A stretch of DNA of 64,000 bases from Escherichia coli (GTDB lineage Bacteria; Pseudomonadota; Gammaproteobacteria; Enterobacterales; Enterobacteriaceae), in the NCBI RefSeq assembly GCF_050920415.1, contig NZ_CP169309.1; one strand, 5' to 3'. A model generated the notes under the pieces. That model worked only from the letters and a program-made list of their open reading frames with translations. It was not told where the DNA came from and did not search any database. Positions 3,929 to 23,421 of the stretch are shown in pieces. The translations under genes and the position numbers were made by a program. The number at the start of each line of letters is the position of its first letter. The stretch's first letter is position 1.

Positions 3929-4100
3929 GGTCAGTGCGTATTTGCAGCGCGACGTTATCAAAGGTGATCATCGTCGATTTACAAAAAATACACTTTGCCC
4001 CTAAAGGATTTCGCTCCGTCACATCGAATGCCGATGTGCGGTACTGTGAACCATGACAACATGGACAGCGGAAATGGAGATGTTGAGTAATAACGGCAAC
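3903..4100 (-). CDS. Small zinc-ribbon-like protein (two CxxC pairs), start uncertain
   Basis: ORF 3903..4163 encodes HFRCPCCHGSQY...KCIFCKS; the listed Met lies inside cspG, so the true start is probably downstream and non-ATG. Confidence 0.3.
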   Translation of the reverse strand, partial: VAVITQHLHFRCPCCHGSQYRTSAFDVTERNPLGAKCIFCKSTMITFDNVALQIRTDHAPLDFTK

Positions 4101-4101
4101 C

Positions 4102-4314
4102 TTAGAGCGTAACAACGTTCGCTGCCGCGGGACCACGTTGCCCCTGCTCAATAGAAAATTCAACTTTCTGATTTTCGTTCAGCGTGCGGAATTCATTGCT
4201 CTGGATGGCGGTGAAATGGACGAAAACGTCTTTGCTGCCATCATCAGGAGTGATAAAGCCAAAACCTTTATCTGCGTTAAACCATTTTACTAAACCAGTC
4301 ATTTTATTAGACAT
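4102..4314 (-). CDS. cspG: Cold shock protein CspG
   Basis: 70-aa [37 protein letters not shown]... with RNP1/RNP2 cold-shock-domain motifs. Confidence 0.92.
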
Positions 4315-4599
4315 ATTTTACTTCCTTCATTTTGGGCCTTTCGGCAAACAGGGCTTTAATACAGAAACTACTTAGTGTTCAGGAGAGAGACTCAAAAGAA
4401 GGGGATAATGCCTGATAATGAGAACTGCTTTAGTAAACTACTTTGTATGCTGTCTGTCTTTCAAACCGACGCAGCTATTAACGCATGATAATTGAGATTA
4501 AGCAATTTTTATTTTAGCCGTCCGGCGGTCTTAAATATCGCTGGCTTTATTTTATTAACCCCGTATAGTGCAGCGCAGTATTTTCAGTAAGGAATTTGT

Positions 4600-4812: not shown

Positions 4813-5253
4813 GATGACGCAGCTTGTTTAAAGCTGGCTGTTTTTATTAAAAAAGCTCAATAGTCAACATCGCACATTATAACAAAAGTTACTTTCACCC
4901 CAGAAAACAAATCCATTTAGCCGAATATCTCTGCACCTAATAGTTATAAATGCTACTTAACAGTCAATCATAGTACCGCTTGAAACTATATCACCAACAA
5001 TAGTTAATAGCTTTCTTAACAATTTTCTTATCTTTAATTTGTATTTTTCTAAGATTTATCTTATGCTCACAAGTCGTATTTCCAGAGGGAAATCGTTAAC
5101 AATCTTATATTTCTCTCTGCGCGCCTTTCCCACTCGCGGTATATAGTACCGACGGTATGCGGAAAGGGAGATTTCACAAGGATGTTATACTCAAAGTAGA
5201 CAATCCTGATCTCAAGCGTACGTATTGTCCATGCGATGAATAAAGGAAAAGTT

Positions 5254-5559
5254 ATGAAACACAAGCTTTCTGCAATCCTTATGGCCTTCATGTTGACGAC
5301 GCCAGCTGCGTTTGCTGCACCAGAAGCAGCAAACGGGACCGAGGCAACGACGGGTACTACTGGCACCACAACGACCACTACTGGTGCCACTACGACTGCT
5401 GCTACCACCGGTGGCGTAGCTGCTGGCGCTGTCGGCACGGCGACGGTTGTCGGTGTGGCAACGGCTGTTGGTGTGGCGACTTTGGCAGTAGTTGCAGCAA
5501 ATGACAGTGGCGATGGCGGTTCTCATAACACCTCAACCACCACGTCCACTACGCGCTAA
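5254..5559 (+). CDS. gfcA: GfcA, Thr-rich small secreted/membrane protein (group 4 capsule operon)
   Basis: MKHKLSAILMAFMLTTPAAFA signal peptide followed by Thr/Gly/Ala-rich low-complexity region; first gene of gfc operon. Confidence 0.75.
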   Translation: MKHKLSAILMAFMLTTPAAFAAPEAANGTEATTGTTGTTTTTTGATTTAATTGGVAAGAVGTATVVGVATAVGVATLAVVAANDSGDGGSHNTSTTTSTTR

Positions 5560-5665
5560 TACTGCTTTAACGCGTCAAAATTAAAGTTAAATGATACCCG
5601 GTTGCGATATTCGTACCGGGCTTTAGAGATTTGCATTTTTTTAATTAACCTTTCAAGGATTAAAG

Positions 5666-6310
5666 GTGCGCCCTCTTATTTTATCGATTTTCGCACTATT
5701 TCTTGCGGGATGTACACACAGCCAGCAAAGTATGGTCGATACATTTCGCGCCAGCCTTTTCGATAATCAGGATATCACCGTAGCGGATCAGCAGATCCAG
5801 GCGTTGCCTTATTCCACGATGTATTTACGCCTTAATGAAGGGCAACGAATCTTTGTGGTACTGGGATATATAGAACAAGAACAAAGCAAATGGTTATCCC
5901 AGGATAACGCCATGCTGGTTACCCACAATGGACGTCTTTTAAAAACCGTCAAACTTAATAATAATCTGCTGGAAGTGACAAATTCCGGGCAGGACCCTCT
6001 GCGTAACGCGCTGGCAATAAAAGACGGCAGCCGCTGGACGCGCGATATTCTCTGGAGTGAAGACAATCATTTTCGCTCTGCGACCCTGAGTTCCACTTTT
6101 TCCTTTGCTGGATTAGAGACGCTGAATATTGCGGGTCGCGATGTGCTGTGTAATGTCTGGCAGGAAGAGGTGACTTCCACGCTGCCAGAAAAACAGTGGC
6201 AAAACACATTCTGGGTCGATTCGGCTACTGGCCAGGTTCGTCAAAGTCGGCAAATGTTAGGCGCAGGGGTTATTCCCGTAGAAATGACGTTTCTTAAACC
6301 CGCACCATGA
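5666..6310 (+). CDS. gfcB: GfcB lipoprotein (YjbF family)
   Basis: 214-aa ORF with lipoprotein signal LFLAGC; operon position. Confidence 0.8.
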   Translation: MRPLILSIFALFLAGCTHSQQSMVDTFRASLFDNQDITVADQQIQALPYSTMYLRLNEGQRIFVVLGYIEQEQSKWLSQDNAMLVTHNGRLLKTVKLNNNLLEVTNSGQDPLRNALAIKDGSRWTRDILWSEDNHFRSATLSSTFSFAGLETLNIAGRDVLCNVWQEEVTSTLPEKQWQNTFWVDSATGQVRQSRQMLGAGVIPVEMTFLKPAP

Positions 6311-7053
6311 ATAAATTACAGTCGTATTTCATTGCCAGCGTACTTTACGTAATGACACCCCATGCCTTTGCGCAAGGAACGGTGACTATTTATCTGCCTG
6401 GCGAACAACAGCCCCTTTCCGTTGGCCCCGTGGAGAATGTTGTCCAGTTGGTGACACAACCGCAACTGCGCGATCGCCTCTGGTGGCCTGGAGTCTTGCT
6501 GACCGACTCCGCGGCGAAAGCTAAAGCGCTTAAAGACTACCAACATGTCATGGCACAGCTTGCTTCCTGGGAAGCAGAAGCTGACGACGATGTGGCGGCA
6601 ACGATTAAATCCGTGCGCCAGCAGTTACTCAATCTCAATATCACTGGTCGCTTACCGGTCAAACTGGACCCTGATTTTGTACGAGTGGATGAGAACAGCA
6701 ATCCCCCGCTGGTCGGGGACTATACGCTCTATACCGTACAGCGCCCAGTGACTATTACTCTGCTGGGTGCGGTTACTGGGGCTGGGCAATTGCCCTGGCA
6801 GGCAGGCCGTAGCGTTACCGATTATCTGCAAGATACCCCCCGTCTTGCAGGCGCGGACAAGAATAACGTTATGGTGATTACGCCTGAGGGTGAGACTGTC
6901 GTCGCCCCTGTTGCCCTGTGGAATAAAAGACATGTGGAACCACCGCCTGGCAGCCAGCTTTGGTTGGGCTTTTCTGCGCATGTACTGCCCGAAAAATATG
7001 CTGATTTAAATGACCAGATTGTGTCTGTTTTAACGCAACGTGTTCCTGACTGA
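6307..7053 (+). CDS. gfcC: GfcC, capsule biosynthesis periplasmic protein
   Basis: 248-aa ORF with signal peptide; 4-nt overlap with gfcB stop; operon position. Confidence 0.8.
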
Positions 7054-9149
7054 TGAAGAAGAACTCTTATCTTTTAAGCTGCCTGGCCATTGCCGTCTCC
7101 AGTGCCTGTCATGCTGAAGTATTAACCTACCCGGATCCGCTGGGGTCGTCGCAATCAGACTTTGGCGGCACAGGATTGTTGCAGATGCCAAATGCGCGCA
7201 TCGCACCGGAAGGTGAATTCAGCGTCAACTACCGGGATAACGATCAATACCGTTTCTACTCCACGTCCGTGGCGCTGTTCCCATGGCTGGAAGGCACCAT
7301 TCGTTATACGGATGTGCGCACGCGCAAATATAGCCAGTGGGAAGATTTCAGCGGCGATCAGTCATACAAAGACAAATCTTTCGATTTTAAACTTCGCCTG
7401 TGGGAAGAAGGTTACTGGCTACCGCAAGTGGCGTTTGGTAAACGTGATATTGCTGGTACGGGTCTGTTTGACGGTGAATATTTGGTGGCCAGCAAGCAAG
7501 CGGGGCCATTTGATTTCACCCTCGGGATGGCGTGGGGCTACGCCGGTAATGCGGGCAATATTACCAACCCGTTTTGCCGGGTGAGCGATAAATATTGTCA
7601 TCGCGCAGAGTCTCACGATGCGGGAGATATCAGCTTTAGCGATATCTTTCGTGGCCCGGCTTCCATCTTTGGCGGCATTGAGTATCAAACGCCGTGGAAT
7701 CCCCTGCGTCTGAAACTCGAATACGATGGCAACAATTACCAGAATGATTTTGCGGGCAAATTGCCGCAGGCAAGCCATTTCAATTTCGGTGCTGTGTATC
7801 GTGCTGCCAGCTGGGCAGATCTTAACCTTAGCTACGAGCGCGGTAACACATTGATGTTTGGCTTCACGTTACGGACCAATTTCAACGATCTGCGCCCTGC
7901 CCTGCGCGATACGCCAAAACCGGCATATCAACCTGCGCCGGAATCTGAAGGATTGCAGTACACCACAGTAGCGAACCAACTTACCGCGCTGAAGTACAAC
8001 GCAGGTTTTGAAGCACCGGAAATTCAGCTGCGCGATAAGACGCTGTATATGTCTGGTCAACAATACAAATACCGTGATTCTCGCGAAGCGGTCGATCGTG
8101 CCAACCGGATTCTGGTGAATAACCTGCCGCAAGGCGTTGAGAAGATTAGCGTGACGCAAAAGCGCGAGCATATGGCGATGGTGACGACCGAAACCGACGT
8201 AGCCAGCCTGCGCAAACAGCTCGCCGGTACCGCGCCTGGTAAAGCAGAGCCACTGCAACAACAACGTGTTGAAGTAGAAGATCTTTCTGCCTTTGGTCGG
8301 GGCTACCGTATTCGTGAAGATCGCTTTAGCTATTCTTTCAACCCAACACTTTCGCAGTCGCTGGGCGGTCCGGAAGATTTTTATATGTTCCAGTTGGGGC
8401 TGATGTCCAGTGCCCGCTACTGGTTTACCGACCACCTGCTGCTTGATGGCGGTATTTTCACCAATATTTACAACAACTACGACAAGTTTAAGTCTTCGCT
8501 GTTACCCGCGGACTCTACCTTGCCCCGCGTGCGCACGCATATCCGTGATTACGTTCGCAATGACGTTTATCTCAACAACTTACAGGCGAACTATTTTGCC
8601 GACTTAGGCAACGGTTTCTATGGCCAGGTGTACGGCGGTTATCTGGAAACGATGTATGCCGGTGTTGGTTCCGAGCTGCTTTATCGCCCGCTCGATGCCA
8701 GCTGGGCGCTGGGGGTGGACGTTAACTACGTGAAGCAGCGTGACTGGGACAACATGATGCGCTTCACCGATTATTCCACGCCAACAGGTTTCGTGACGGC
8801 TTACTGGAACCCGCCGACGCTCAATGGCGTACTGATGAAACTCAGCGTTGGGCAATATCTGGCAAAAGATAAAGGGGCAACCATCGACGTCGCCAAACGC
8901 TTTGACAGCGGTGTGGCAGTAGGAGTATGGGCGGCAATCAGTAACGTATCTAAAGATGACTACGGCGAAGGCGGCTTTAGTAAAGGGTTTTATATCTCGA
9001 TTCCGTTTGACTTGATGACCATTGGACCTAACCGCAACCGCGCGGTGGTTTCGTGGACACCATTGACGCGTGATGGTGGACAAATGCTGTCACGCAAATA
9101 CCAGCTCTATCCAATGACGGCAGAGCGAGAAGTACCGGTTGGACAATAA
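7053..9149 (+). CDS. gfcD: GfcD, outer-membrane beta-barrel protein (YjbH family)
   Basis: 698-aa ORF with signal peptide; start overlaps gfcC stop. Confidence 0.8.
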
Positions 9150-9194
9150 CCTGACGTAATTCATAACATTACAATGACTGATAAATATAAACCA

Positions 9195-10334
9195 ATGAAA
9201 AAGAACATTTTTAAGTTTTCGGTACTGACATTGGCTGTTCTGTCTTTGACAGCATGTACCCTTGTTCCTGGTCAGAATTTATCGACCAGTAACAAGGATG
9301 TCATTGAACTACCTGACAATCAGTATGACCTGAACAAAATGGTCAATATCTATCCCGTCACGCCAGGATTGATTGATCAGCTGCGCGCCAAACCGATTAT
9401 GTCGCAGGCTAACCCGGAGCTGGAGCAACAAATCGCGAACTATGAATATCGCATCGGCATTGGCGATGTGTTGATGGTGACGGTCTGGGATCACCCGGAA
9501 CTAACCACACCCGCAGGGCAATATCGTAGCGCCAGTGATACTGGCAACTGGGTTAACGCTGATGGTGCAATTTTCTACCCTTATATTGGTCGCCTGAAAG
9601 TGGCCGGGAAAACGCTTACCCAAGTACGCAACGAGATTACAGCGCGTCTGGACTCAGTCATTGAAAGCCCGCAAGTCGATGTCAGCGTCGCGGCGTTCCG
9701 ATCGCAAAAAGCGTACGTCACCGGCGAAGTCAGCAAATCGGGTCAGCAGCCGATTACCAATATTCCTCTGACCATCATGGATGCGATTAACGCCGCGGGC
9801 GGTCTGACCGCAGATGCAGACTGGCGCAACGTGGTGCTCACCCAGAATGGCGTAAAGACCAAAGTGAACCTCTATGCGCTGATGCAGCGTGGCGACTTGC
9901 GCCAGAACAAACTGCTGCACCCGGGCGATATTTTATTTATTCCGCGCAACGATGATCTGAAAGTCTTCGTGATGGGTGAAGTGGGTAAACAGAGCACGCT
10001 GAAAATGGACCGCAGCGGTATGACCCTGGCGGAAGCACTGGGTAACGCTGAGGGTATGAATCAAGATGTCGCTGATGCGACGGGGATTTTTGTTATTCGT
10101 GCAACGCAAAACAAGCAGAATGGCAAAATCGCCAATATTTATCAGCTGAATGCGAAGGACGCATCGGCAATGATACTCGGAACGGAATTCCAGCTTGAAC
10201 CTTACGACATTGTTTATGTCACTACCGCGCCGCTGGCTCGTTGGAACCGTGTGATTTCTCTGCTGGTACCGACGATTTCCGGGGTGCATGACCTGACAGA
10301 GACTTCACGGTGGATTCAAACATGGCCCAACTAA
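9195..10334 (+). CDS. gfcE: GfcE, Wza-like outer-membrane polysaccharide export lipoprotein
   Basis: Lipoprotein signal [21 protein letters not shown]; Wza-family sequence; start taken at internal Met of ORF 9174..10334. Confidence 0.8.
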
Positions 10335-10768
10335 AATTTAACTCAATCCTGGTGGTTTGTACCGGCAACATTTGCCGTTCGCCCATTGGCGAACGCTTGC
10401 TGCGTAAACGTCTGCCAGGCGTAAAAGTCAAATCGGCAGGTGTTCATGGTCTGGTAAAGCACCCTGCAGATGCAACAGCGGCAGATGTTGCCGCTAATCA
10501 TGGCGTATCTCTTGAAGGACATGCCGGACGTAAGCTTACTGCTGAGATGGCACGAAATTACGATCTGATTCTGGCAATGGAGTCGGAACATATTGCTCAG
10601 GTTACGGCAATCGCTCCCGAGGTCCGCGGGAAGACAATGCTGTTTGGGCAATGGCTGGAACAGAAAGAGATCCCTGATCCCTATCGTAAAAGCCAGGACG
10701 CATTTGAACATGTTTACGGCATGTTGGAGCGCGCCAGTCAGGAATGGGCGAAGCGCCTTAGCCGGTAA
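10322..10768 (+). CDS. etp: Etp, low-molecular-weight protein-tyrosine phosphatase
   Basis: [10 protein letters not shown]-loop motif; overlaps gfcE 3' end by 13 nt. Confidence 0.85.
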
Positions 10769-10787
10769 TTTGAGTTTATAAAATACG

Positions 10788-12968
10788 ATGACAACTAAAA
10801 ATATGAATACGCCACCAGGCAGCACTCAGGAGAATGAGATCGATCTGCTTCGTCTGGTCGGCGAGTTATGGGATCACCGTAAGTTTATTATCAGCGTGAC
10901 TGCGTTATTCACGCTGATCGCTGTCGCTTACTCGCTGTTAAGCACGCCAATTTATCAGGCAGATACTCTGGTCCAGGTTGAGCAGAAACAGGGCAACGCC
11001 ATTCTCAGCGGCCTGAGCGATATGATCCCTAACTCATCGCCCGAGTCAGCACCGGAGATCCAACTGCTGCAATCGCGCATGATTCTCGGTAAAACCATTG
11101 CTGAACTGAATCTGCGCGACATAGTTGAGCAAAAGTATTTTCCGATTGTGGGTCGCGGCTGGGCGAGATTAACCAAAGAGAAACCAGGTGAGCTGGCGAT
11201 CAGTTGGATGCACATTCCACAACTGAATGGCCAGGATCAACAACTGACACTCACAGTTGGGGAAAACGGCCACTATACGCTGGAAGGTGAAGGGTTCACC
11301 GTCAATGGTATGGTCGGCCAGCGTCTGGAAAAAGACGGCGTTGCTCTGACTATCGCGGACATTAAGGCCAAACCAGGAACGCAGTTTGTCCTGAGCCAGC
11401 GTACCGAACTGGAAGCGATTAACGCGTTGCAGGAAACCTTTACCGTTAGCGAACGCAGTAAAGAAAGCGGGATGCTGGAACTTACCATGACCGGTGATGA
11501 TCCCCAGTTGATTACTCGTATTCTGAACAGCATCGCTAACAACTATTTGCAACAGAATATCGCTCGCCAGGCGGCGCAGGATTCACAAAGCCTTGAATTC
11601 TTACAGCGCCAGTTGCCAGAAGTGCGCAGCGAGCTGGACCAGGCGGAAGAAAAACTCAACGTTTATCGCCAGCAGCGCGATTCGGTTGACCTTAACCTGG
11701 AAGCCAAAGCCGTTCTTGAGCAGATTGTTAACGTTGATAATCAACTCAATGAGCTGACCTTCCGCGAGGCCGAGATCTCCCAGCTGTATAAGAAAGATCA
11801 CCCAACTTATCGTGCGCTGCTGGAAAAACGCCAGACGCTGGAGCAAGAACGCAAACGCCTGAATAAGCGGGTATCGGCAATGCCTTCCACTCAACAGGAA
11901 GTATTGCGTTTAAGCCGTGACGTAGAAGCGGGCCGTGCGGTATATCTGCAATTACTTAACCGCCAGCAGGAGTTGAGTATTTCGAAATCCAGTGCGATTG
12001 GTAACGTGCGGATTATCGACCCGGCAGTCACTCAGCCGCAGCCAGTAAAACCGAAAAAAGCGTTGAATGTGGTGCTTGGTTTTATTCTTGGCCTGTTTAT
12101 TTCGGTGGGTGCCGTGCTGGCGCGTGCGATGTTGCGTCGTGGTGTAGAAGCACCGGAACAACTGGAAGAGCACGGCATCAGCGTTTATGCCACTATCCCG
12201 ATGTCCGAGTGGCTGGATAAGCGTACCCGTCTGCGTAAGAAAAATTTATTTTCTAATCAGCAGCGCCATCGTACTAAAAATATCCCCTTCCTGGCGGTGG
12301 ATAACCCGGCGGATTCTGCTGTGGAAGCCGTACGTGCGCTACGAACCAGTCTGCACTTCGCTATGATGGAGACAGAGAATAACATTCTGATGATCACCGG
12401 TGCGACGCCAGACAGTGGTAAAACGTTCGTCAGTTCAACTCTGGCGGCGGTGATCGCCCAGTCCGATCAAAAAGTGTTATTTATTGATGCTGACTTACGT
12501 CGTGGTTATTCGCATAACCTGTTTACCGTGAGTAATGAACATGGCTTGTCGGAATATCTGGCAGGGAAAGATGAGCTCAACAAAGTGATCCAGCATTTTG
12601 GCAAAGGAGGCTTTGATGTGATTACTCGCGGTCAGGTGCCACCTAACCCGTCTGAACTGCTGATGCGCGATCGGATGCGTCAATTACTGGAATGGGCGAA
12701 CGACCATTACGATCTGGTGATTGTCGATACGCCGCCGATGCTGGCGGTGAGCGATGCTGCGGTCGTGGGGCGCTCTGTCGGCACCAGCCTGCTGGTTGCG
12801 CGTTTTGGCTTGAACACCGCCAAAGAGGTGAGCTTGTCAATGCAGCGTCTGGAACAGGCTGGCGTTAATATTAAAGGCGCAATCCTCAATGGTGTGATTA
12901 AACGCGCCAGCACCGCTTACAGTTATGGCTATAACTATTACGGTTATAGTTACTCCGAGAAAGAGTAA
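10788..12968 (+). CDS. etk: Etk, BY-kinase (Wzc paralog) tyrosine autokinase
   Basis: 726-aa ORF; Walker A GATPDSGKT; C-terminal Tyr cluster YSYGYNYYGYSYSEKE. Confidence 0.88.
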   Translation: MTTKNMNTPPGSTQENEIDLLRLVGELWDHRKFIISVTALFTLIAVAYSLLSTPIYQADTLVQVEQKQGNAILSGLSDMIPNSSPESAPEIQLLQSRMILGKTIAELNLRDIVEQKYFPIVGRGWARLTKEKPGELAISWMHIPQLNGQDQQLTLTVGENGHYTLEGEGFTVNGMVGQRLEKDGVALTIADIKAKPGTQFVLSQRTELEAINALQETFTVSERSKESGMLELTMTGDDPQLITRILNSIANNYLQQNIARQAAQDSQSLEFLQRQLPEVRSELDQAEEKLNVYRQQRDSVDLNLEAKAVLEQIVNVDNQLNELTFREAEISQLYKKDHPTYRALLEKRQTLEQERKRLNKRVSAMPSTQQEVLRLSRDVEAGRAVYLQLLNRQQELSISKSSAIGNVRIIDPAVTQPQPVKPKKALNVVLGFILGLFISVGAVLARAMLRRGVEAPEQLEEHGISVYATIPMSEWLDKRTRLRKKNLFSNQQRHRTKNIPFLAVDNPADSAVEAVRALRTSLHFAMMETENNILMITGATPDSGKTFVSSTLAAVIAQSDQKVLFIDADLRRGYSHNLFTVSNEHGLSEYLAGKDELNKVIQHFGKGGFDVITRGQVPPNPSELLMRDRMRQLLEWANDHYDLVIVDTPPMLAVSDAAVVGRSVGTSLLVARFGLNTAKEVSLSMQRLEQAGVNIKGAILNGVIKRASTAYSYGYNYYGYSYSEKE

Positions 12969-23291: not shown

Positions 23292-23379
23292 GGAAGTGTG
23301 GCCGAGCGGTTGAAGGCACCGGTCTTGAAAACCGGCGACCCGAAAGGGTTCCAGAGTTCGAATCTCTGCGCTTCCGCCA
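23292..23379 (+). tRNA. serT: tRNA-Ser (anticodon UGA)
   Basis: 88-nt GGAAGTGTGGCCGAGCGG...TTCGAATCTCTGCGCTTCCGCCA; anticodon loop CTTGAAA; long variable arm; encoded CCA. Confidence 0.92.
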
Positions 23380-23387
23380 AATAAGAT

Positions 23388-23421
23388 AAGGGGTTACCAA
23401 ATGGTAACCCCTTAGTTTTTT
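23388..23421 (+). terminator. Intrinsic terminator after serT (islet-side variant)
   Basis: Palindrome AAGGGGTTACCA/TGGTAACCCCTT followed by T-run. Confidence 0.6.

Follow-up and report, generated by a model that had tools for sequence, protein, structure and literature searches.

Spurious reading frames and length conservation at the low-complexity capsule gene gfcA of Escherichia coli

We conclude with high confidence that positions 5254-5559 of the window (the whole 64,000-nucleotide stretch of Escherichia coli DNA analysed here) are the coding sequence of gfcA, an already-known small gene of the group 4 (O-antigen) capsule, that the further open reading frames (ORFs) overlapping it are by-products of its composition, and that its length is effectively fixed. 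The plus strand of 5254-5559 matches, with 100% identity, the RefSeq CDS WP_001299283.1 in NZ_CP169399.1, annotated as 'threonine-rich inner membrane protein GfcA', and a megablast query with positions 5100-5700 against 5,426 complete E. coli genomes returned a 100% match. The gene stands first in an intact gfcABCDE-etp-etk group 4 capsule operon annotated at 5254-12968, with cspH upstream and, directly 3' of it, gfcB, which encodes a lipoprotein (Pfam match PF11102, E = 4e-69); gfcC has Pfam matches to PF20616 and PF06251. The gene for GfcA (YmcD) in K-12 and in EPEC O127:H6 is the same one and has the same place, with cspH and gfcB on either side, and its product has 101 aa; the operon downstream is the same as in those strains, and the GfcA proteins of K-12 and E2348/69 are 98% identical to that of the window. 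The RefSeq identity and the operon context thus bear out the gene name proposed in the original prediction, and both peptide strings quoted there, TTGTTGTTTTTTGATTTAATTGG and VGVATAVGVAT, are present in the ORF at 5236-5559.

Composition, architecture and transcription of gfcA

The plus-strand ORF at 5236-5559, with annotated start at 5254, translates to MKHKLSAILMAFMLTTPAAFAAPEAANGTEATTGTTGTTTTTTGATTTAATTGGVAAGAVGTATVVGVATAVGVATLAVVAANDSGDGGSHNTSTTTSTTR. The annotated start is favoured over the ATG at 5236 because of the AGGA at 5244-5247. The gene and the parts of its product are as follows.

5244-5247, plus strand: Shine-Dalgarno sequence AGGA, 6 nt ahead of the ATG at 5254, read from the sequence
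5254-5559, plus strand: gfcA coding sequence, 101 aa plus stop, first gene of gfcABCDE-etp-etk, by RefSeq identity
5254-5316, plus strand: signal-peptide-like N-terminus, residues 1-21 (MKHK, a hydrophobic core, A-F-A then A), by sequence features
5317-5409, plus strand: Thr/Gly/Ala low-complexity tract, residues 22-52, differing in length between species
5410-5499, plus strand: Gly/Ala/Val hydrophobic segment, residues 53-82, a putative membrane helix by hydropathy, with a conserved TTGG(V/L)AAG entry motif
5500-5556, plus strand: polar acidic Thr-rich C-terminal tail NDSGDGGSHNTSTTTSTTR, by its (N/S)D.GDG motif and Thr-rich tail

Threonine makes up 28 of the 101 residues (27.7%; 29.7% in the K-12 allele), and threonine, alanine, glycine and valine together account for 81% of the 80-residue mature part. 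At the codon level, purines fill 84% of first positions and C fills 55% of second positions, each of the four codons for Thr and of the four for Ala is in use, and the GC content of 5300-5540 is 0.61 vs. 0.50 for the 64-kb window. The window carries a rare allele, matched at an identity of at least 99% in only 8 of 3,607 genomes; the majority allele, that of K-12, is 95.4% identical to it, with mainly synonymous changes. The two differ at 14 positions, of which 12 are synonymous third-position differences and 2 are Ala/Thr swaps, a preponderance consistent with purifying selection on the gfcA frame. K-12 also has an IS1 in the gfcA promoter region, whereas the window has none there.

GfcA comprises a signal-peptide-like N-terminus, a disordered Thr/Gly/Ala tract, a Gly/Ala/Val hydrophobic segment and a short acidic Thr-rich tail. 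In alignments, the signal-peptide-like N-terminus is kept in all orthologues, where it ends in A-x-A, and in YjbE, a protein considered below; signal-peptide cleavage and membrane topology are both inferred. The tract at residues 22-52 ranges from ~13 to 30 aa across orthologues and, in an AlphaFold2 model, is without secondary structure (pLDDT <50). The hydrophobic segment (~30 residues) has zero indels within Escherichia; its Kyte-Doolittle 19-residue maximum is 2.16, at residues 63-82, and the AlphaFold2 model, a low-confidence one (7-sequence alignment, pLDDT 45), has a helix at residues 59-84 and nothing elsewhere. The (N/S)D.GDG motif and Thr-rich tail are common to orthologues and YjbE, and the tail has one 3-nt indel relative to E. 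albertii. With a tail that is without positive charges and a model that is weak, GfcA may reside in the inner membrane or may be fully exported, both locations being possible.

Searches with the protein returned little. Pfam and NCBIfam gave no family for GfcA, the sole match being a sub-threshold, signal-peptide one to the WGxxGxxG family; tblastn against plasmids gave no match; and exact cluster look-ups of the 101- and 107-aa forms of GfcA and of the antisense ORFs gave no match. Word-indexed searches and HMMER searches against representatives found 15-37 proteins, mostly frameshift or fusion artefacts, the small number of matches being due to low complexity. A scan for GfcB in one genome per species gave 5 loci, adequate for architecture and too few for covariation analysis of the leader.

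Published accounts present GfcA as a protein of 101 aa with ~30% Thr, 'inner membrane or secreted', of unknown function (PMC8592465), and as 'entirely uncharacterized' (PMC11494523). In EPEC, the capsule is lost on deletion of gfcA and regained with gfcA in trans; the complementing plasmid carries both DNA strands (PMC3853201). A speculation in PMC8592465 is that GfcA is possibly modified with O-antigen and exported by GfcD. According to a fuller form of this hypothesis, a periplasmic Thr-rich tract would be the O-antigen acceptor, and GfcA would be the carrier or anchor of the group 4 capsule, passed to GfcBC and exported via GfcD. We regard this as unlikely; were it true, the tract would owe its near-invariant length in E. 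coli, despite its repeat origin, to selection for a certain spacing or a certain count of acceptor sites. The contribution of the present results on GfcA is a conserved architecture, and no mechanism.

A further hypothesis gives the gene a role in addition to coding: that the C-rich, G-poor RNA from ACN codons is a strong rut site, such that untranslated gfcA RNA would lead to Rho-dependent termination of the operon. As excerpted, a survey of Rho-dependent termination in E. coli includes a 'terminator zone' for gfcA, whose RNA stimulated the Rho ATPase more than any other natural template assayed, and gfcA and gfcB have the largest positive values among the genes excerpted from the supplementary expression table (PMC9160355). 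In the window, there is more C than G at 5320-5437 (C 0.33-0.36, G 0.26-0.28), and most markedly so at 5520-5597 (C 0.29, G 0.10). However, the middle of the gene, 5400-5517, is G-rich; the IS1 upstream of gfcA in K-12 may be what exposes untranslated RNA; and the zone of the survey is matched to the window by gene name. We consider a Rho-related role possible, if doubtful, and one that would stand beside the coding function of gfcA.

The flanks of the gene were also inspected. The leader upstream of gfcA is conserved and strongly folding. A candidate intrinsic terminator between gfcA and gfcB was rejected, the hairpin at ~5597-5620 having no directly following T-run and a z of only -1.6. A candidate RfaH ops element in the E. 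coli gfcA leader was likewise rejected, since no more than 7-8 of 12 positions match; a better ops-like sequence, GCGGTAGCG, is found in the leader of Cedecea.

Tandem repeats and the length of gfcA

Within 5300-5540, the region in which repeats had been predicted, TRF detects periodicity beyond composition (scores 61 and 58), in the form of two arrays.

5356-5396, plus strand: degenerate tandem duplication, 21 nt x 2.0, encoding TTGTTTT and TTGATTT (TRF score 61, 85% matches)
5428-5477, plus strand: degenerate tandem repeat, 18 nt x 2.8, encoding AVGTAT, VVGVAT and AVGVAT (TRF score 58, 78% matches)

TRF gives only three matches in the whole 64 kb, and these arrays are two of them. Codon shuffles (n = 400) reach a score of at least 58 in 0.3-1.5% of trials, and two separate arrays occur in 0 of 400 shuffles restricted to mature-protein codons; the absence of double arrays from the shuffles shows that the periodicity exceeds composition. 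No exact direct repeat in gfcA is longer than 8 nt, vs. a codon-shuffle mean of 8.7 for the longest. The nucleotide periodicity of gfcA is real but weak. The 18-nt array is old, since it recurs in E2348/69, Escherichia sp. MOD1-EC7003 and E. albertii. The 21-nt array overlaps the region in which E. coli gfcA exceeds E. albertii gfcA by 12 + 3 + 3 nt, which points to either a duplication in the E. coli lineage or a loss in the other one.

These observations would fit a history, inferred from the arrays, in which the tract carries what erosion has left of two old duplications in tandem within the gene, one with a 7-aa and one with a 6-aa unit. The old duplications, together with small indels of 3n nt, would have changed the length of the tract between Escherichia species, and the copies, with their mixed synonymous codons and a longest exact repeat of 8 nt, are now too degenerate to slip at the DNA level. 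We attribute the lack of slippage to the shortness of that longest exact repeat and to the mixing of all Thr and Ala codons.

The length of gfcA within E. coli was surveyed with several alleles as queries. The CDS query found a match in 3,607 genomes, nearly full length in 3,591. In a survey that combines evenly spaced samples with identity-band counts, and from which indels of 3-6 nt below ~2-3% frequency may escape, all 58 of the 58 full-length rows sampled evenly down the ranking for the window allele are 306 nt, and so again are 58 of 58 sampled full-length rows for the K-12 (majority) allele. A query with the K-12 allele gives 2,511 records at an identity of at least 99%, 1,068 at 95-99%, 26 at 90-95% and 2 at 80-90%, only 28 of the 3,607 being below 95%. 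The alleles opened one by one (K-12, AST85, TUM18780, Res13, E2348/69, B771 and AW1.7) are all 306 nt. The sole in-frame variant found is a 15-nt deletion adjoining short repeated ACGAC/ACCAC motifs. When the deletion allele is used as query, 3 records match at 99% or above and 6 at 95-99%, corresponding to ~9 of 3,606 genomes (0.25%), and all other records align to it with a 15-nt gap. In strain CAVP773 the CDS with this deletion is 291 nt and has an IS5 directly upstream; the deletion is also found in draft assemblies in which the rest of the operon is partly deleted. Two further sets of suspected gfcA indels proved to be intergenic: those of 1-2 nt lie in the gfcA-gfcB spacer, and one of 23 nt lies upstream of gfcA.

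Between species the length does change. E. albertii gfcA encodes 94-95 aa and differs from E. coli gfcA by indels of 3, 12, 3 and 3 nt, all within Thr-rich parts; three of them (-3, -12 and -3 nt) are in the tract at 5317-5409, and the remaining one is in the C-terminal tail. More distant orthologues have 86-105 aa. We conclude that E. coli gfcA has an effectively constant length of 306 nt and that indels in the tract occur mainly between species.

The results largely refute the hypothesis that the tract is a hypermutable, slippage-prone repeat that gives frequent gfcA length polymorphism or phase variation in E. coli, which we judge very improbable. In its favour are the two tandem arrays beyond compositional expectation, the in-frame 15-nt deletion near ACGAC/ACCAC motifs in ~9 genomes, the 3n indels relative to E. 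albertii, and the frameshifted gfcA products scattered through protein databases, mostly from single low-coverage assemblies. However, the arrays have only 2.0 and 2.8 copies, 78-85% matched; the longest exact repeat, 8 nt, is what codon shuffles lead one to expect; every sampled full-length E. coli copy and each inspected allele is 306 nt; the one length variant is at ~0.25%; and the database frameshifts are at scattered positions, with no single hotspot. The original prediction had described the tract as prone to slippage and to length polymorphism. Neither part survives: the arrays are 2-3 degenerate copies with no exact repeat longer than codon shuffles give, and across E. coli strains 116 of 116 sampled full-length rows are 306 nt, against one 15-nt deletion in ~9 of 3,606 genomes. 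We conclude that the Thr-rich tract of this capsule gene, repeat-derived as it is, makes no contingency locus of it.

What does vary at the gfc locus in E. coli is insertion of IS elements and presence or absence of the whole operon. In addition to the IS1 in the K-12 promoter region, we find an IS1 within the gfcA 3' end, an IS1-linked deletion spanning gfcA into etk, an IS5 with most of gfcA lost, and insertions of IS5, ISVsa5 and IS3 near gfcA. The gfc operon is missing in about one-third of complete E. coli genomes, ST131 included, and cspH there abuts appA.

Reading frames that overlap gfcA

Five ORFs in addition to gfcA overlap its coding sequence.

5212-5526, minus strand: antisense ORF, 104 aa, in the codon-aligned frame, spurious, with a single stop-giving codon in gfcA
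5067-5438, minus strand: antisense ORF, 123 aa, in the frame in which wobble faces wobble, spurious, reaching 184 nt into the gfcA leader
5402-5536, minus strand: antisense ORF, 44 aa, of ordinary length, in a stop-rich frame (7 stops)
5312-5419, plus strand: out-of-frame sense ORF, 35 aa, from the ORF list
5492-5584, plus strand: out-of-frame sense ORF, 30 aa, from the ORF list

The positions of stops account for the antisense pattern codon by codon. In the codon-aligned antisense frame, only a sense TTA, CTA or TCA codon can give a stop, and gfcA has one such codon, a TCA (5533-5535). The wobble-to-wobble frame is closed only by sense codons beginning with TA or CA, and the sole source is the His codon at 5524. 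The third antisense frame has 7 stops, which occur at NCT|A and NTT|A junctions, abundant in Thr runs. Across the three frames in this order, gfcA gives 1, 1 and 7 antisense stops per 101 codons, whereas the means for other long genes in the window are 2.6, 3.7 and 4.6. Shuffling the gfcA codons gives 1.0, 0.67 and 10.3 stops vs. the observed 1, 1 and 7; the shuffles reproduce the pattern, and composition alone therefore explains it. The mechanism is that, with ~80% of the mature protein drawn from ACN, GCN, GGN and GTN codons, stop triplets are scarce in two antisense frames, leaving these open across gfcA as long 'shadow' ORFs, and that ACT|A and GCT|A junctions close the third.

The same effect is seen at related genes. 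Long antisense ORFs, of 144 and 82 aa, are also present over the paralogue yjbE, and the effect extends to the genes in the gfcA position of Cedecea colo, Citrobacter sp. JGM124, a gammaproteobacterial MAG and Escherichia sp. MOD1-EC7003. On the sense strand, the frame of the ORF at 5312-5419 is open for 95 codons in the K-12 allele, and this open frame accounts for the 109-aa frameshift chimeras of gfcA, of which metagenome-derived protein databases have many. Stop positions and codon shuffles alike agree with the original prediction that a low-complexity tract in gfcA generates spurious ORFs on both strands. The prediction also placed three overlapping antisense ORFs at 5067-5526 and ascribed them to the tract. 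All three are present, with an outer limit that is really 5536; composition explains the parts that lie inside gfcA, but 62 of the 123 codons of the ORF at 5067-5438 are upstream of the gene, in the conserved leader, and these the tract cannot explain.

A remaining hypothesis is that one of the antisense ORFs is a genuine overlapping gene, for which the best candidate is the 123-aa ORF at 5067-5438. Its frame is open to an upstream end, at gfcA-184, that is kept in E. coli, E. albertii and Escherichia sp. MOD1-EC7003, and inside gfcA the 14 nucleotide differences between the window and K-12 alleles change just 3 of its residues. The same 14 differences alter 12-14 residues in each of the four other non-gfcA frames, including 12 of 14 that alter amino acids in the 104-aa codon-aligned frame. 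However, few residue changes are what is expected where wobble faces wobble, and are hence uninformative; we therefore examined the 184 nt upstream of gfcA separately. There, the frame is open in E. albertii only through leader DNA that is ~90% or more identical, and in comparisons with E2348/69 and E. albertii the first, second and third positions of the antisense codons have 6-7, 2-3 and 3-5 substitutions, with none of the third-position bias typical of coding sequence and with an amino-acid change in most cases. The first start codon is at +184, but at +109 or +46 in E. albertii-type loci, and the upstream end of the ORF is removed by IS1 in K-12, by IS5 in AW1.7 and by a 23-nt deletion in B771. 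It is on the leader portion, the start-codon variation and the IS disruption that rejection of the 123-aa ORF rests. For the antisense ORFs as a set, there is no Pfam family above the threshold of E = 0.01, RefSeq annotates nothing on the minus strand over gfcA, and antisense ORFs of equal length lie over yjbE and over unrelated orthologues. An overlapping antisense gene is thus exceedingly unlikely. We conclude that all five extra ORFs are spurious, that none is a gene, and that the 62 codons which the 123-aa ORF has in the leader stay open by accident, in non-coding DNA that is conserved. The lesson for annotation is that six-frame ORF tracks over low-complexity genes are untrustworthy, and gfcA provides a clean worked example.

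Comparison with known systems

YjbE (PF11106) is encoded by the first gene of yjbEFGH, upstream of a YjbF-family lipoprotein, and gfcA is in the equivalent position: GfcB is 39% identical to YjbF, and gfcA, like yjbE, encodes a small, low-complexity, putatively secreted product upstream of homologues of YjbF, YjbG and YjbH. The architecture of YjbE is as that of GfcA, with a signal peptide, Ser/Thr/Ala/Gly low complexity, AVGVA..GDG and a Thr-rich tail; YjbE differs in having 80 aa, more Ser and a shorter hydrophobic stretch. Direct comparisons of the two proteins gave mixed results. GfcA has no match to the PF11106 profile even at E = 10 and no BLASTP alignment to YjbE, and in hhalign the signal peptides alone align. 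An 86-aa protein in the GfcA position of a complete gfc-like operon reaches 24.0 bits against PF11106, below the 27.9 cut-off, and local alignments of GfcA with YjbE have z = 2.9-4.6 vs. composition-preserving shuffles, a modest similarity beyond composition.

'Shadow' ORFs arise opposite genes with a strong purine-N-pyrimidine-like or GC-rich codon bias. In general, as at gfcA, the antisense frames are free of stops purely from the composition of the sense codons. The gfcA case differs from the general one in that its source is amino-acid low complexity in a genome of ~50% GC, rather than genome-wide GC, and in that one of the shadow ORFs is additionally lengthened by an adjoining conserved leader.

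Contingency loci and genes for surface proteins with in-frame repeats share with gfcA low-complexity coding sequence, location at a surface-polysaccharide locus, and tandem units that are a multiple of 3. Unlike those loci, gfcA has copies that are few and degenerate, no exact repeat longer than 8 nt, and a length that is near-invariant in E. coli.

The leader upstream of gfcA

The stretch around the 5' end of the gfc operon contains the following features (window positions):

4048-4470 (-): cspA thermoregulator, full-length Rfam match, 157 bits
5004-5253: proximal cspH-gfcA intergenic region, ~250 nt upstream of gfcA
5254-5559 (+): gfcA
5320-5437: C-rich, G-poor stretch
5520-5597: C-rich, G-poor stretch
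5597-5620: hairpin CCCGGU...ACCGGG in the gfcA-gfcB spacer

Comparison of E. coli, Escherichia sp. MOD1-EC7003 and E. albertii indicates that the ~250 nt 5' of gfcA are ~90% or more identical in all three, and that the last ~90 nt of the leader, which show no differences among them, are more conserved than gfcA synonymous sites. The region upstream of the gene in gfcA's place in Cedecea and Citrobacter is unrelated to the Escherichia gfcA leader. The predicted fold of window positions 5075-5260 is more stable than the folds of shuffled sequences (-52.4 kcal/mol vs. -39.3 +/- 4.0 kcal/mol; z = -3.3). In the consensus fold of the leader, the Shine-Dalgarno sequence GGAAA (5245-5249) is paired with UUUCC (5079-5083), and compensatory changes are found at only one pair. 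We suggest, from conservation and predicted folding, that the conserved stretch 5' of gfcA may be a structured regulatory leader. The cspA thermoregulator match extends from upstream of cspG into the 5' part of that gene, as expected for the cspG locus.

Variation in gfcA and its surroundings

The window allele of gfcA is rare, being present at 99% or more identity in 8 of 3,607 genomes, and differs from the majority, K-12-type, allele by 4.6%; over the surrounding 3.3 kb, most genomes are ~97% identical to the window. Seven of the 14 differences between the two alleles lie at gene positions 129-165, a 37-nt part of the Thr tract. Local recombination and an elevated synonymous rate are both candidate sources of the clustered differences.

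Many predicted "proteins" of 107-120 aa that match GfcA in protein databases (P0008-P0012, P0017-P0018 and P0023-P0027) are gfcA frameshift chimeras, all of which share the C-terminal end ...QQMTVAMAVLITPQPPRPLHANTALTRRN. The +1 frame of the K-12 allele runs for 95 codons without a stop. Most chimeras come from single low-coverage assemblies, and therefore they likely reflect sequencing error.

Comparison with other E. coli genomes shows that the cspH-gfcA region (window 4813-5559) is recurrently hit by insertion sequences.

Insertion sequences and associated deletions at the cspH-gfcA region
IS1: promoter region of gfcA, in K-12
IS1: 3' end of gfcA
IS1-linked deletion: gfcA to etk
IS5: adjoining gfcA or in place of gfcA
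ISVsa5 and IS3: near the cspH-gfcA region

The entire gfcABCDE-etp-etk operon (window 4813-12968 compared) is missing from approximately one-third of complete E. coli genomes; in these genomes, e.g. O25b:H4-ST131, the match stops at the end of cspH and appA follows. Elsewhere in the window, positions 23292-25869, between hyaA and yccA, contain tRNA-Ser, tRNA-Gly and tRNA-Arg, together with an integrase fragment, an Ail/Lom fragment and the sRNA STnc100; this segment looks like a decayed integrated element.

Rho, the gfcA-gfcB spacer and an ops-like element

The two C-rich, G-poor stretches, the second of which has a C content of 0.29 and a G content of 0.10, arise from ACN codons. In published work surveying Rho-dependent terminators, the Rho ATPase rate was reported to be higher with RNA from the gfcA "terminator zone" than with any other natural template assayed; in an excerpt of the survey's supplementary expression table, no gene has larger positive values than gfcA and gfcB (PMC9160355).

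The spacer hairpin was not called as a terminator in a terminator scan, and a T-run occurs only ~15 nt beyond it. The predicted fold of the spacer is only a little more stable than those of shuffles (z = -1.6), and some strains carry 1-2-nt indels there.

The resemblance of the E. coli gfcA leader to ops is weak. In the gfc-like operons of Cedecea colo (L024, ~1900-1925) and of a metagenome contig (L019), the leader of the gene in gfcA's place contains GCGGTAGCG, which resembles the RfaH ops element.
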